Shown piece by piece: positions 7,655 through 49,987 of a DNA stretch of 64,000 bases; position 1 is the stretch's first letter, and each line of letters starts with the position of its first letter. The translations under genes were made by a program, and so were the position numbers. Under the pieces are notes generated by a model that was given only the letters and a program-made list of their open reading frames with translations, made no database searches and had not been told where the DNA came from. This stretch comes from an uncultured delta proteobacterium (GTDB taxonomy: Bacteria > Chloroflexota > Dehalococcoidia > Dehalococcoidales > BS750m-G39), in assembly GCA_963739245.1 (NCBI GenBank), contig CAVTZP010000005.1:153314-217313 (forward strand). The letters run 5' to 3'.

Positions 7655-7863
7655 AACCTCACCCCCTTAATCCCCCTCTCCTTAGAAAGGAGAGGGGGAA
7701 GGAGAAGAAAGAGGGACTAGCGCCCCTCTTAGACGCCCCGTTAAGTCAGGCTCTTTCAAAGGGGGAGAATAAAAGAGAGGGGGGCTTCGCCCCTCTTTCT
7801 ATTTAATTCCCCCTTCCCCTCTAGGGGAAGGGGGTAAGGGGGATAGGGTTAGCAAATAATCTC
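7655..7863. repeat. Composite GC-rich hairpin element, copy A (both TIR-like ends plus four hairpins)
   Basis: AACCTCACCCCC at 7655-7666. Hairpins CCCCCTCTCCTT/AAGGAGAGGGGG at 7672-7698, AAGAGGG/CCCTCTT at 7709-7730, an imperfect one at 7772-7798, and CCCCCTTCCCCT/AGGGGAAGGGGG at 7809-7834. Tail GGGGGATAGGGTTAGCAAATAATCTC ends at 7863. Confidence 0.8.
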
Positions 7864-7910
7864 AAATAGGCATTTTGTCCTCTCTATGAGCTATGGTAAA
7901 ATAAATTTGT

Positions 7911-9725
7911 ATGGCACAAACCTATTTAACCGAGCAACTAAGAGGACTACCAGCCAGCCCTGGCGTTTACCTGATGAAGGATGCCGAGGACAATATTCTG
8001 TATGTTGGCAAGGCGGCTAATCTCCGCCACCGCGTCGGCTCATACTTTGGTGCCGGGCAAAAGCTAACGCCAAAGCTGCAGCGGATGGTAAGCGAGGTTA
8101 ATGACCTTGACTACTTCGTTACTGGTTCGGAACAGGAGGCTCTTATCCTTGAGCTAAACCTGATAAAGAGGTACCATCCCCGTTACAATGTTCGGCTTAA
8201 GGATGATAAGACCTTCCCCTACCTCAAGATAAACCTGGGTGAGGACTGGCCCAGGGTTTTTGTCACCCGGCGCCTGGAGGCGGATGGGGGGCGTTACTTT
8301 GGTCCCTTTGCCAGCGCCAAATCAGTGCGCCAGACGCTGAAGCTAATAAAAGGAATTTTCCCCTTCCGCTCCTGTTCCAGAACTATCACCGGCACCGACC
8401 CCCGCCCTTGCCTTGAGTACCATATCGGGCATTGCCTTGCTCCCTGCATTGGCGTGGTGAGCCGGGAGGAATATGCCGCGGTAATAAAACAGGTAATCCT
8501 CTTCCTTGAAGGGAGGCAGGAGAGGGTGGTGCGGGAGCTTGAGAGCAAGATGAATAAGGCGGCTGAGGCTCTGGACTTTGAAACGGCGACCAGGCTCAGA
8601 GACCAGCTCCAGGCGGTTAAGGAGGTGGTTGAAGGGCAAAGAATCGCCACTACGGTGAAGGGGGAGCAGGATGTTATCGCCTTTGCCCAGGACAAAGACC
8701 AGGCTTATGTCCAGGTCTTCTTTATCCGTGGTGGTAAGCTAATTGGTCGGGAGAGCTTTTTGTTGCAGGGGACCCGATATGAAGAGCCGAGCCAAATCAT
8801 GACCAGTTTTATCAAGCAGTTTTACGATTCCAGCCCCTATATCCCACCGCTACTACTGCTCCAGCATCCGGTGGAGGATATGGCTACAATCCAGAGCTGG
8901 CTTCAAAGTAAAAGGGGAAAAAGAGTTAATATTCAAGTGCCGCGCCGGGGAAATAAAAAACAACTGCTGAACATTGTTGCTGAAAACGCTGAGCAGGGCT
9001 TGGAGCAACTGAAGATTAAGCAGCTCGCCTCGCCGACAGCACTGTCAGCAGCGCTGGACGAAATAAAAAGGGAACTTGCCCTGCCCCGATTGCCCGCCCG
9101 TATGGAGGGCTACGACATCTCCGATATCCAGGGGATGGCAGCGGTAGGCAGTATGGTGGTCTTTGATAAAGGAAAGCCAAAGCCGGCTCACTACCGGCGG
9201 TTCAAAATCAAAACAGTATCTGCCGCCAACGATTATGCCATGCTTCAGGAGGTGCTCCGGCGACGGTTCAGGAGGGCTAGTGGTGCCTCAGATACCTGGG
9301 CAATCCTGCCTGACCTCGTCCTCATTGATGGCGGCAGGGGGCAGCTTAACACCGCCCGGGAAGCAATAGATGAAGCGGGGGCTGGCCCTGTGCCTGTTGC
9401 CAGCTTAGCCAAGGAAAATGAGGAGATTTTTATTCCCCAAAAGTCAGAGCCTATCATTCTACCCCGCTCTTCCCCTGGCCTCCAATTACTTCAGCGCCTC
9501 AGGGATGAGGCGCACCGCTTTGCCCTGGGCTATCACCAGAGCATGCGTAAGCGGGAGACCTTTGCCTCGGTCCTGGACAGTGTCCCCGGCGTTGGACCGA
9601 AACGCAAGCGAGCGCTATTGCGCCACTTCGGCTCAGTTACCGCTATAAAGGGGGCTAGCGTTGAGGAGCTAACCACCGCCGGCGTAACCAAGAGCCTGGC
9701 CAAGAAGATAAAGGAGTATCTATAA
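7911..9725 (+). CDS. uvrC: Excinuclease ABC subunit C
   Basis: GIY-YIG N-terminus (PGVYLMKDAEDNILYVGKAANLRHR), UVR domain, Endo V-like domain and C-terminal (HhH)2. Confidence 0.95.
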   Translation: MAQTYLTEQLRGLPASPGVYLMKDAEDNILYVGKAANLRHRVGSYFGAGQKLTPKLQRMVSEVNDLDYFVTGSEQEALILELNLIKRYHPRYNVRLKDDKTFPYLKINLGEDWPRVFVTRRLEADGGRYFGPFASAKSVRQTLKLIKGIFPFRSCSRTITGTDPRPCLEYHIGHCLAPCIGVVSREEYAAVIKQVILFLEGRQERVVRELESKMNKAAEALDFETATRLRDQLQAVKEVVEGQRIATTVKGEQDVIAFAQDKDQAYVQVFFIRGGKLIGRESFLLQGTRYEEPSQIMTSFIKQFYDSSPYIPPLLLLQHPVEDMATIQSWLQSKRGKRVNIQVPRRGNKKQLLNIVAENAEQGLEQLKIKQLASPTALSAALDEIKRELALPRLPARMEGYDISDIQGMAAVGSMVVFDKGKPKPAHYRRFKIKTVSAANDYAMLQEVLRRRFRRASGASDTWAILPDLVLIDGGRGQLNTAREAIDEAGAGPVPVASLAKENEEIFIPQKSEPIILPRSSPGLQLLQRLRDEAHRFALGYHQSMRKRETFASVLDSVPGVGPKRKRALLRHFGSVTAIKGASVEELTTAGVTKSLAKKIKEYL

Positions 9726-9741
9726 TTTACCCGGAGGAGAG

Positions 9742-10722
9742 ATGCCAGCTAATCTACCACCACAATATCATGAAGCCGAAGAGAACTTACGGTTGGCTAA
9801 GACTATCCCGGAGAAGGTAGCCGCCCTTGAGGAGATGCTGGCGGTCATGCCTAAGCACAAGGGGACTGACCACCTCCGGGCTAAGCTAAGAGCCAAGATT
9901 GCTCAGCTGACCGAGGCGTCAGAAAAAAAGTTAGCCACCAAGCGGACGTCAACGGCTATACCCAGGGAGGGGGCAGCCCAGGTGGCGGTAATTGGCTTGC
10001 CTAATTCGGGCAAATCCCAGCTTGTTGCCACCATCACTAATGCCTCCCCGACTGTAGCCGAATACCCCTTCACCACCCACAACGCCACCCCGGGGATGAT
10101 GGAGTTTGAGAATATAAAAATCCAGTTGATTGATACCCCGCCCTTAGCGCCACAGTCTATTGAGTTCTGGTTGCCAGCCTTGCTGAGACGGGCTGACGCC
10201 CTCTTGATTATGGTGGACTTATCCGATGCCCCGGAAGAGCAGGTGGCGGCTATCCTTAAACAGCTGGAAAATATGAGGATAGTAACTGGTGACAGTGGGG
10301 CAAAAGAGGATGCTGAGTTTATTATCTGGCATAAAAAGGCATTAATTATTGGCAACAAAATAGACCTGGATAATGCCCAAACCAATTACACCGCTTTGAA
10401 GAATAAGTATGGAGAGAAATTCCCAATTATTGCCATCTCCGCCAGAGATGGGACAGGCTTGGAAGAGCTGAAGCTTAAGCTCTATCAGTTTCTTGACATT
10501 ATTCGGGTATATACCAAAGCGCCGGGGCAGAAGCCGATTTTCACTGACCCCGTCGTCCTGAAAAGGGGAAGCACCCTGGAGGATGCCGCCGCCGAAGTCC
10601 ATAAAGACTTCCGGGAGAAGCTAAAATACGCCCGGCTCTGGGGCTCAGGTAAGTACGACGGCGTCATGGTGAAGAGAGACCATATTATGCAGGACGGCGA
10701 TATTATAGAGCTGCACCTTTGA
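9742..10722 (+). CDS. OBG-HflX superfamily GTPase of the DRG type with a C-terminal TGS domain
   Basis: N-terminal helix PKHKGTDHLRAKLRAKIAQL resembles the DRG KNKATEHHLG motif. G1 GLPNSGKS, G3 DTPP, G4 NKID. TGS-like end IIELHL. Confidence 0.8.
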   Translation: MPANLPPQYHEAEENLRLAKTIPEKVAALEEMLAVMPKHKGTDHLRAKLRAKIAQLTEASEKKLATKRTSTAIPREGAAQVAVIGLPNSGKSQLVATITNASPTVAEYPFTTHNATPGMMEFENIKIQLIDTPPLAPQSIEFWLPALLRRADALLIMVDLSDAPEEQVAAILKQLENMRIVTGDSGAKEDAEFIIWHKKALIIGNKIDLDNAQTNYTALKNKYGEKFPIIAISARDGTGLEELKLKLYQFLDIIRVYTKAPGQKPIFTDPVVLKRGSTLEDAAAEVHKDFREKLKYARLWGSGKYDGVMVKRDHIMQDGDIIELHL

Positions 10723-49014: not shown

Positions 49015-49046
49015 TTGCCCCCCTCAATTCCTCCCTCAATAAAAGG

Positions 49047-49811
49047 CTATCTTATCCAGACCGGTTTTCTCTTCTCCAGGAAGGCTTTCAGCCCCTCAAC
49101 GCTATTCTCTCCACCCATCACCACGGTAGCATCAACCCCGGTTACTTCCATAGCATTATGAAACTCAAGGTCAAAATTACGGTAGAGAGCCCGCCTTGCC
49201 TGGGTCAAAGCCAGCCCGCTATTAGCGGTAAACCGCTTGATAAATTCCTCGGTCGCCTTCTCAAACTCCTCCTCAGGGACGGCTTTGTTTATCAGACCAA
49301 TCCTCTCCGCTTCCTTAGCGCTAATACTGTCGCCGGATAGAATAAGCTCAAAAGCCTTTCGTCTGCCCATAAGCCTGGGGAAGAGGACCGAGGCCGGGGG
49401 TGGATAGACGCCAAGCTTAATCTCAGGCTGTCCCAGTTGCGCCTTTTCTGAGGCGATAGCCATATCACAGCCAGCCACTATCTCGCAACCCCCGCCCAGG
49501 GCAAGACCATTGACTACGGCAATAGTTGGCTTATCTACCCCTACTAGTGATATAAATAACTTGTGGAATACCTCAACCATTTTTGGTAGCTTCTCCCCAA
49601 GGTGGTCGCCAACAGCTACCCCGGCAGAAAAGGCTTTATTGCCGGCGCCGGTAATAACCACCACCTTTACCTCGTCATCCGTCCTTAGCTCGGCTAGGGC
49701 TTGGTTCATCTCTTCTAGGGTGTCAATATCCAGGATGTTTAACGGTGGCTTATTAATGATAATCTTTGCCACCCCATCCTTCTTCTCCAGCAGTATATTT
49801 TTAAAACTCAT
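49047..49811 (-). CDS. Enoyl-CoA hydratase/isomerase family protein
   Basis: Crotonase motifs (VVVITGAGNKAFSAGV, NGLALGGGCEIVAGCD). Confidence 0.85.
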   Translation of the reverse strand: MSFKNILLEKKDGVAKIIINKPPLNILDIDTLEEMNQALAELRTDDEVKVVVITGAGNKAFSAGVAVGDHLGEKLPKMVEVFHKLFISLVGVDKPTIAVVNGLALGGGCEIVAGCDMAIASEKAQLGQPEIKLGVYPPPASVLFPRLMGRRKAFELILSGDSISAKEAERIGLINKAVPEEEFEKATEEFIKRFTANSGLALTQARRALYRNFDLEFHNAMEVTGVDATVVMGGENSVEGLKAFLEKRKPVWIR

Positions 49812-49898
49812 TCTTCCCCCCTGTTTCTAGTGTTATCAATCTGAAGTGTAACAGTATCCTTAAATATGGTCAAGAGATTGTTATGTATGGAGAGTCAA

Positions 49899-49987
49899 AA
49901 GAGAGACGAAACCCCTCTCTAAAATCTCTTCCCCCTCTCCTTTTAAGGAGAGGGGGATAAAGGGGGTGAGGTTAATAAATAATCTCT
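49899..49987. repeat. Composite GC-rich hairpin element, copy E
   Basis: Hairpin CCCCCTCTCCTT/AAGGAGAGGGGG at 49931-49956. Tail GGGGGTGAGGTTAATAAATAATCTC at 49962-49986. CCCCTCTCTAAAATCTCTT is shared with copy B. Confidence 0.8.

Follow-up and report, generated by a model that had tools for sequence, protein, structure and literature searches.

The 64,000-nucleotide stretch analyzed here (hereafter the window; contig CAVTZP010000005.1 of assembly GCA_963739245.1, positions 153,314 to 217,313) carries six intergenic regions with short, hairpin-rich repeats. They are flanked by housekeeping genes of the usual kind (xerC/D, uvrC, an AbiTii gene, udg, glyA, two enoyl-CoA hydratase genes, and valS), and close relatives of the window proteins carry the labels of metagenome-assembled genomes (MAGs) of Dehalococcoidales. 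An earlier note on this DNA had described the six regions as mosaics of three hairpins, H1 to H3, and a terminal tail, and the sequences described are indeed found at its coordinates; all copies in the window are intergenic. The regions are lettered A to F here in window order, so that the region at 20605 is B and the one at 49874 is F (the lettering of the earlier note is self-consistent once the 20605 region is taken as its 'F'). We consider it probable that they are copies, or decayed or rearranged copies, of a non-autonomous transposable element, i.e., a miniature inverted-repeat transposable element (MITE), that is widespread in Dehalococcoidales and built of motifs of the BoxC/PIT/TM type. 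This reading is based on inverted ends, target-site duplications (TSDs) of 6–9 bp, differences between orthologous sites, nested insertions, and the covariation of the hairpins and of their mirror segments, all of which were observed.

The modules are strongly over-represented, and within the window they are restricted to the six regions, as expected for the dispersed modular family that had been proposed. The tail, GGGGGTGAGGTT, has 5 exact matches in the window and 19 at up to 2 mismatches (6.2 expected); the H1 arm CCCCCTCTCCTT is found 11 times at up to 1 mismatch (0.73 expected), and the H2 pattern AGAGGG-N3-12-CCCTCT 5 times (0.12 expected). A covariance model of the H2+H1+tail unit, built on 63 related copies with 117 positions, was run over the window with filters off and matched the six regions only, with nothing credible elsewhere. 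Low-complexity G/C-rich sequence of separate origins, produced by chance or compositional convergence, would be in line with arms that are all-purine or all-pyrimidine and with the frequency of short G-runs. However, the enrichment over shuffles is 10- to 40-fold, the 117-position model reaches 90–110 bits for five copies of the window and for no other part of the 64 kb, and the AT-rich ends and spacers are conserved across dozens of MAGs. The probability of such an origin is therefore negligible, and we regard it as ruled out by the enrichment figures together with the model scores.

The family also extends well beyond the window. When one genome per species was scanned for the pattern AAGGAGAGGGGG-N3-8-GGGGGTGAGGTT, at least 117 loci were obtained, and about two thirds of those listed belong to Dehalococcoidia or Dehalococcoidales MAGs; the Dehalococcoidia loci share a 5-nt spacer between arm and tail and the same H2 upstream. 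When 74 copies were aligned, conservation was found to reach a second, inverted end, and 24 copies of 70–370 bp are bounded by imperfect inverted ends of ~25 nt (GAGATTGTTTAGCAACCTATCCCCC on the left, GGGGGTGAGGTTAATAAACAATCTC on the right). Bounded copies are non-coding and mostly 86–330 bp long, with modes at 136–160 bp. A full copy of about 150 bp begins with an AT-rich outer end, GAGATTGTTTAGC, followed by AACCTATCCCCC, TGA, and H3 (consensus CCCCCTTCCCTT-ATT-AAGGGAAGGGGG); AGTGTAGGTA then leads to H2 (consensus AGAGAGGGGC-GAA-GCCCCTCTCT) and AAAATCTCTT to H1, after which ATAAA, the tail GGGGGTGAGGTT, and a second AT-rich outer end, AATAAACAATCTC, complete the element. Shorter copies are deletion derivatives; in two of them (L031 and L210), one chimeric hairpin stands between two ends. 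The ends had previously been called 'MITE/BIME-like', a description that is supported by the ~25-nt terminal inverted repeats (TIRs), the TSDs, the differences at orthologous sites, and the nested insertions.

In the window, copy A (7642..7863, 222 bp, no strand assigned) occupies the divergent xerC/D-uvrC region and consists of two units with outward tails, one on the minus strand (7639-7755, 99 bits with the covariance model) and one on the plus strand (7752-7866, 65 bits). Its left end is formed by an outer TIR (7642-7654) and the reverse-complemented tail AACCTCACCCCC (7655-7666), its interior by H1 (7672-7698), H2 (7709-7730), a second H2 (7774-7800), and H3 (7809-7834), and its right end by the tail variant GGGGGATAGGGTT (7838-7850) and the outer TIR AGCAAATAATCTC (7851-7863).

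Evidence for transposition comes from the flanks of the copies. Among 16 strictly bounded copies, for which direct repeats were required to be perfect and to abut both ends, 7 have such repeats of 6–9 bp, compared to 0.12 from permuted flanks. Copy F (49874..49986, plus strand, 113 bp; model match 49874-49989, 97 bits), which has neither H3 nor a left tail, is the example in the window: its outer TIR GAGATTGTTAT (49874-49884), H2 (about 49899-49922), H1 (49931-49956), tail (49962-49973), and right outer TIR AATAAATAATCTC (49974-49986) are enclosed by two 9-bp copies of TATGGTCAA, at 49865..49873 and 49987..49995. On the minus strand, the left duplication reads TTGACCATA and contains a -35-like TTGACC for ech2, and the right one includes the stop codon of a gene of the Mut7-C family. 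As one copy of the duplication thus holds the stop codon and the other the -35-like box, the insertion could be harmless. Furthermore, in a relative with a 93% identical enoyl-CoA hydratase (L210/L211, a 613-kb contig) the orthologous site is likewise occupied by an element, which has the identical 9-bp duplication and a different interior; this indicates that the insertion is old and that its interior has been remodeled since.

The Mut7-C family gene itself (49995-50455, minus strand) is 86–91% identical to the protein encoded on L210 and is split by a frameshift into two frames near 50200-50215, so that it is a pseudogene or else was assembled incorrectly; the open reading frame (ORF) on the opposite strand (50037-50489, plus) is spurious. 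On L210 (785-890), gene callers read the element copy as the N-terminus of the Mut7-C protein (...LPLPLAKGKGIKGIGLINNL), and three Logan contigs (L207-L209) end inside H1 (position 1). In this way, the repeats interrupt assemblies and give rise to false extensions of proteins.

The turnover of the element is best seen on both sides of glyA, for which 80 metagenomic orthologues were compared. Copy C (32346..32513, plus strand, 168 bp; model match 32397-32516, 110 bits) lies between the divergent udg and glyA promoters and comprises a left TIR, GGGGTCTTTTAGCAACCTATCCCCC (32346-32370), H2 (32423-32442), H1 (32457-32483), the tail (32489-32500), and the same right outer TIR as copy F, AATAAATAATCTC (32501-32513); the fold of its single-stranded DNA contains a closing stem, H2, and H1 (z = -5.4). 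The udg-glyA spacer measures 252 nt in the window and 100 nt in the three closest relatives, in which only GAGGTCACTTAGCAACCT is left, joined straight to the -35 box of glyA. Several more distant relatives have spacers of 103–123 nt and no trace of an element, and in others the spacer extends to 312–474 nt and holds the same family in either orientation, another family, or copies with nested hairpin inserts of 28–45 nt. The other family is likewise GC-rich and has CCCACCC/GGGTGGGAAGA ends; a CCCACCC...GGGTGGGAAGAARGA family was noted both in the udg-glyA spacer and at the 3' flank of glyA (L141, L124, L127, L158, L122, L168).

The nested inserts are mini-hairpins (e.g., TGGGTTCCCAGGAAAATCGGAGATTTTTCTGGGTGCT and GGGGTCCCCGCGAAATCCTGATTTCGTGGGGTA) that are located either between hairpin and tail or immediately behind GGTT. 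Their junctions carry short repeats, for example TAAAG, and they are present in one orthologue and missing from another. L197 (2526-3001) and L136 (798-1235), for instance, differ by a nested hairpin of 40 nt; further sites lie just 3' of glyA (L121, L149, L156, L197) and at about 400-440 of L123. The SDR repeats of Nostoc, reportedly described by Elhai et al. in 2008, are said to be hairpin-forming insertions of roughly 20–45 nt inside other repeats that are absent from orthologous copies. The mini-hairpins that distinguish L197 from L136 and those of L121, L149, and L156 resemble this description, with different sequences; the likeness does not include the main element.

On the other side of glyA, copy D (33809..33985, plus strand; model match 33804-33923 on the minus strand, 90 bits) begins directly after the stop codon (TGA, 33806-33808). 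It consists of a TIR-like outer end, TATTAATTAGC (33809-33819), a variant of the reverse-complemented tail, AACCCCATCC (33820-33829), a variant of H3 (H3b, 33836-33864) followed by a run of seven T, H2 (33879-33897), a small hairpin (33919-33932), and a tail (33963-33974) that leads into the extended -10 box of ech, TGCTATAAT. In most lineages the element abuts the glyA stop codon; in some it is decayed and in others absent.

With respect to promoters, a glyA promoter-like site (TTGACA-17-TAGACT, 32518..32546, plus strand) starts 5 nt after copy C and is conserved in relatives both with and without the element. The predicted udg promoter (32331-32360, minus strand) has its -35 box, TTGCTA, inside the left end of copy C, and distant relatives have an unrelated udg box, TTGACTTGACA, which was lost in the clade of the window; the udg promoter may thus have been replaced by the element.

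The core of the element has a history of its own. Holder et al. (2015, PMC4666352) deal with a motif that was first named BoxC, then PIT element, and then TM (studied earlier by Bachellier et al. in the 1990s and by Hoyne & Maher in 2000 and 2002), and in which a pyrimidine arm, a loop, a purine arm, and a short loop are followed by a G-rich third strand that can lie on the purine arm. It is known from Escherichia coli (as CCCTCTCCC-TGT-GGGAGAGGG-CCG-GGGTGAGGG), Synechocystis, and H. influenzae, and its copies in 262 proteobacterial genomes have been catalogued; the purine-motif intrastrand triplex forms in single-stranded DNA and not in RNA, and a stable triplex has been demonstrated for the E. 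coli motif, TMECO (PMC4666352). Judged by its sequence, H1 together with the tail is this BoxC/PIT/TM G/C-rich intrastrand triplex motif. H1 reads CCCCCTCTCCTT-N3-AAGGAGAGGGGG in copies A, C, E, and F, its arms are 97% paired across 89 distinct copies, and each of the 12 positions at which the tail GGGGGTGAGGTT mirrors AAGGAGAGGGGG gives an allowed triad (G*G, A*A, or T*A). The earlier statement that no family with this architecture had been described is therefore wrong for the core; for the packaged element it stands, judging by Rfam and the searchable literature.

The same rule extends to the remaining hairpins. Variants of H3 have allowed triads at 11–12 of 12 positions, and further arms occur with fitting tails (AAGGGAAGGGGG with GGGGGATAGGTT, AAGGGGAAGGGG with GGGGATGGGGTT, and, in Runella, GGAGAAGGG with GGGATGAGG). 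For 95 distinct instances of arm and tail, compatibility amounts to 8.77 of 10 positions, compared to 8.20 +/- 0.085 after permutation of the arms; none of 2000 permutations attained the observed 8.77. H2 has its third strand on the 5' side (GGGGTGT..AAGAGGGG, GGAGAGT..AAGAGAGG, GGGGAAG..GAAGGGG), and here 6.33 of 7 positions are compatible (5.71 +/- 0.08 permuted, 4.95 shuffled). As H2 and H3 obey the rule of H1 and its tail, the element consists of three triplex-type modules between AT-rich ends. The hairpins with their G-rich mirror segments thus have the anatomy of triplexes, and triplex formation is predicted for them.

Compared with the published motif, the words are nearly equal (CCCTCTCCC/GGGAGAGGG/GGGTGAGGG in E. 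coli and CCCCCTCTCC/GGAGAGGGGG/GGGGGTGAGG here), and the two share the layout (pyrimidine arm, loop of 3–6 nt, purine arm, short loop, G-rich mirror), the choice of T*A and A*A triads, the strictly intergenic and multi-copy occurrence, often as inverted pairs and more often upstream of ORFs, and the association with local rearrangement. Regarding the last point, Holder et al. tied TM sites to deletions and rearrangements (PMC4666352), which matches the turnover at both flanks of glyA. However, the second loop has 5 nt in Dehalococcoidia (ATAAA, ATTAA, ATACA) instead of 3 nt, the arms have 12 nt in a shifted register, paired tails point outward rather than inward as in the E. coli doublets, the motif is set between AT-rich inverted ends with target duplications, and a third motif, H2 with its 5' third strand, occupies the middle. 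The literal TMECO pattern, CCCTCNCCC-N3-6-GGGNGAGGG-N3-GGGNGAGGG, has no match in the Dehalococcoidia copies, and the published CCCTCNCCC...GGGNGAGGG is accordingly not literally present; given the shifted register CCCCCTCTCC and the 5-nt second loop, the Dehalococcoidia motif is a relative of TMECO and not TMECO sensu stricto.

Compensating changes in the stem of H2, which had been noted in the window, were confirmed by double changes in 8 of 9 pairs among 63 copies. In an independent sample, the hairpins show double changes in 19 of 20 pairs, compared to 10.3 in shuffles (none of 500 as high) and 7–10 in slid controls, and 96.3% of cells are paired (85.3% in shuffles). Mismatches in H2 are about equally of G.U type (17) and A.C type (23), so that the constraint looks like that of a DNA palindrome and not of an RNA transcribed from one strand. 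Rfam provided no match to the element: the window reaches the gathering score for one tRNA only, and at a permissive E-value the overlapping matches are limited to mir-641 at chance level (E = 0.5–2.6).

The H1 arms, AAGGAG/CTCCTT, had been read as Shine-Dalgarno (SD) and anti-SD sequences; the purine and pyrimidine arms of a triplex motif account for them better. A riboregulator of this kind was rejected, since the motif is abundant in Bacteroidota and cyanobacteria, a strand-specific G.U signal is missing, purine-motif triplexes are absent in RNA (PMC4666352), and the glyA promoter lies downstream, i.e., 3', of copy C, which is therefore not part of the glyA mRNA. With three triplex modules accounting for the tail and the purine/pyrimidine arms, ribosome binding is not needed.

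Outside the Dehalococcoidia, the same core was found, among the matches listed, in Runella, Hymenobacter, Arcicella, and other Bacteroidota, in cyanobacteria and Thiothrix, as well as in Ignavibacteria, Leptospirales, Armatimonadota-like MAGs, and Patescibacteria. The layout in these phyla is AACCTCAYCCC, hairpin, spacer, hairpin, GGGGGTGAGGTT, with second loops of 3 nt that read CCG or TTA, both of which also occur in E. coli. The copies from Bacteroidota, cyanobacteria, and Thiothrix combine this 3-nt loop with the shifted register of Dehalococcoidia, and outer arms are lineage-specific (in Runella, GGGGCTGTCTCAAAAG...CTTTTGAGACAGCC). Three sets of contigs labeled Bathyarchaeia (L004), Janthinobacterium lividum (L013/L025), and Desulfobacterales (L015) carry copies of Dehalococcoidia or Hymenobacter type and are for this reason probably mis-binned. 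H1 with tail was also present on 9 viral contigs of IMG/VR (L198-L206), mostly in the form with the 3-nt loop; as these are the only matches among 2.9 million, there is no sign of a phage vector.

The position of the copies relative to genes has to be considered as well. Seven of eight tails had been reported to face a start codon, which is literally true but weaker than it seems, because 4 of the 7 are located between divergent genes, so that any end pointing outward necessarily points to a start; the eighth tail (49962-49973) is directed at the stop codon of the minus-strand Mut7-C gene. In tandem gene pairs, with non-independent copies from the glyA locus excluded, the H1 end points towards the downstream gene in 27 cases and away from it in 10 (p = 0.008), a bias that is only moderate. 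Copy E (44641..44758, minus strand, 93 bits) is of this tandem kind: upstream of valS, its reverse-complemented tail (44657-44668) lies 23 nt from the valS ATG and is followed by H1 (44674-44699) and H2 (44711-44735); a clear outer TIR was not found. The hairpins of the element are, moreover, the strongest terminator-like sites in the window, for example H3b with its T-run just after glyA and the H2-like hairpin with six T after the AbiTii gene, and copies immediately adjoin stop codons as well as -35 or extended -10 boxes.

These features would fit host cis-regulatory modules (terminators, insulators, or SD-masking structures in 5' untranslated regions) that are kept by selection and are not mobile, as would the copy after glyA, which persists across lineages with 78–92% GlyA identity and with compensatory changes in H2, and the ATG found 10–40 nt after the tail in some copies. 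We nevertheless regard this explanation as unlikely. It leaves the inverted ends, the TSDs, the nested insertions, and the presence of different families at one site unexplained; divergent gene pairs, which require no terminator between them, account for about a fifth to a quarter of the intergenic copies; the glyA promoter is located downstream of copy C; a strand-specific G.U signal is missing; and the orientation skew could equally come from strand-specific insertion combined with gene-strand bias. PIT elements of E. coli, in what PMC4666352 cites from Hoyne & Maher 2002, had no promoter or terminator activity. Positions at stop codons and promoter edges fit selection for harmless sites, with occasional co-option as a terminator or -35 box, and nothing in the present sequence comparison demonstrates a cellular function of the elements.

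Mobility by a different route would be provided by REP/BIME (REPIN) elements, which a domesticated Y1/HUH transposase (RAYT, TnpA-REP; one per genome) would excise and disseminate in single-stranded form. Likeness to these systems (PMC6006769; PMC3116915) extends to mosaics of few palindromic units, inverted doublets of a hairpin with a flanking motif, proposed roles in termination and mRNA stability, and 'double-foot' derivatives with a single hairpin (here L031 and L210), which resemble those of RAYT subclass 2.4. In addition, one subfamily has GTAG 3 nt 5' of H2, and the left boundary AACCT| in two independent 'solo' states fits insertion 3' of a fixed target. However, canonical REPs have GT[AG]G 0–2 nt from the foot of the hairpin, which H1 and H3 lack, and HUH transposition does not duplicate its target, in contrast to the perfect 6–9 bp repeats at 7 of 16 copies. 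A tblastn search with IS200/IS608 TnpA probes, which is a weak test, covered the window and 1.3 Mb of loci and gave no hit to a RAYT gene or another Y1 transposase. Taken together, a REP-like origin appears improbable.

We therefore return to the MITE as the preferred explanation. Bacterial MITEs (Correia/NEMIS, ERIC/IRU, RUP, Nezha, Chunjie) are non-coding elements of less than 300 bp with TIRs, TSDs, and long hairpins that occupy intergenic regions, form length variants by internal deletions and nested insertions, and can donate promoter or terminator signals. The present element shares all of these properties. It differs in that no parent insertion sequence is known, that the length of the duplication appears to vary between 6 and 9 bp, and that the usual conservation of TIRs is reversed: its inner ends are a triplex module shared across phyla, and its outermost AT-rich part is lineage-specific. 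As far as found, it is the first BoxC/PIT/TM motif with transposon-like inverted ends and TSDs, and the searchable literature yielded no paper on miniature inverted-repeat elements in Dehalococcoid organisms.

Under this model, copies would be moved in trans by a transposase making staggered cuts and would survive where they are harmless, immediately behind stop codons and at the outer edge of -35 boxes. Deletion and recombination between similar hairpins, favored by non-B DNA structures, would then produce the mosaics, and some copies may have been co-opted, as suggested by the terminator-like hairpins after glyA and the -35 box for udg.

Several observations weigh against a MITE. The window and about 1.25 Mb of related DNA revealed no autonomous element or transposase bounded by these ends, and in the related DNA no pair of TIRs more than 400 bp apart encloses an ORF (a single pair 4.8 kb apart represents two separate copies); likewise, no transposase domain was detected among 30 window ORFs scanned against Pfam, about half of the long ORFs in the window. 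Nine of the 16 bounded copies have no clear duplication, and a repeat length of 6–9 bp is unusual for one transposase. Among the relatives compared at the glyA locus, none showed a cleanly empty site with just one copy of the target, and the sole relative with readable flanks at the copy F site is also occupied. Two independent 'empty' states of the udg-glyA spacer (L118/L179/L120 and L130) keep the left outer end up to AACCT. This may reflect insertion beside a fixed target; we favor structure-prone deletion, with retention of the left end partly explained by the predicted udg -35 box that it supplies. In the other phyla, outer arms differ and no duplication was evident. Finally, triplex formation by the present copies is a prediction from primary structure, and Holder et al. 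saw no link of TM to mobile elements in E. coli (PMC4666352).

Region B (20576..20722, plus strand) is a doubtful or chimeric member of the family, as the model scores just 21 and 18 bits there (20605-20722). Its H2-like hairpin with T-run (20576-20596) lies 3' of the AbiTii gene, and its brackets, CCCTCCCCCTCAC (20605-20617) and GAGGGGGTGAGGTA (20709-20722), enclose a 90-nt AT-rich insert unlike H1 to H3. This interior (20619-20708) matches, at 27 of 29 nt, the left arm of an AT-rich palindromic element (CTCTAAATCCTAATTTCTAAATTCTAAAC...GTTTAGGATTTAGGGTTTAGAATTTAG) at 46603-46677, between coaBC and coaX, and the two may represent another small repeat family. The neighboring AbiTii abortive-infection gene (19618-20544) and a low-GC stretch at 24000-28000 (43% compared to about 51%), which encodes a Schlafen/AlbA_2 + HATPase_c_4 protein (25731-27284) and two ORFs without Pfam match, may belong to a small defense or foreign island.

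BoxC/PIT/TM motifs rank among the most conserved and widespread short bacterial repeats. They have been orphan repeats since the 1990s, and in the account given by PMC4666352, studies found no promoter, terminator, or mobility function for them, only local instability. The occurrence of the same module at both ends and in the middle of an element with TIRs and TSDs, together with covariation according to triplex rules and turnover at orthologous sites, would provide a handle on this question. It is possible, if doubtful, that BoxC/PIT/TM motifs serve as the functional ends in a superfamily of small transposons that spans several phyla and whose enzyme recognizes a fold, i.e., a hairpin with its mirror G-strand, and not a linear sequence. 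If true, this would account both for an inner triplex part that is shared by Chloroflexota, Bacteroidota, cyanobacteria, and Proteobacteria and for outermost bases that vary by lineage, and Dehalococcoidales would be the first group with visible footprints of transposition in the form of TIRs and TSDs. For Dehalococcoidales, the elements mislead the annotation of MAGs through broken short-read contigs, spurious N-terminal extensions, and terminator-like hairpins and -35 boxes that are supplied by the element. For the motif family as a whole, the findings would show where to seek the mobilizing enzyme.

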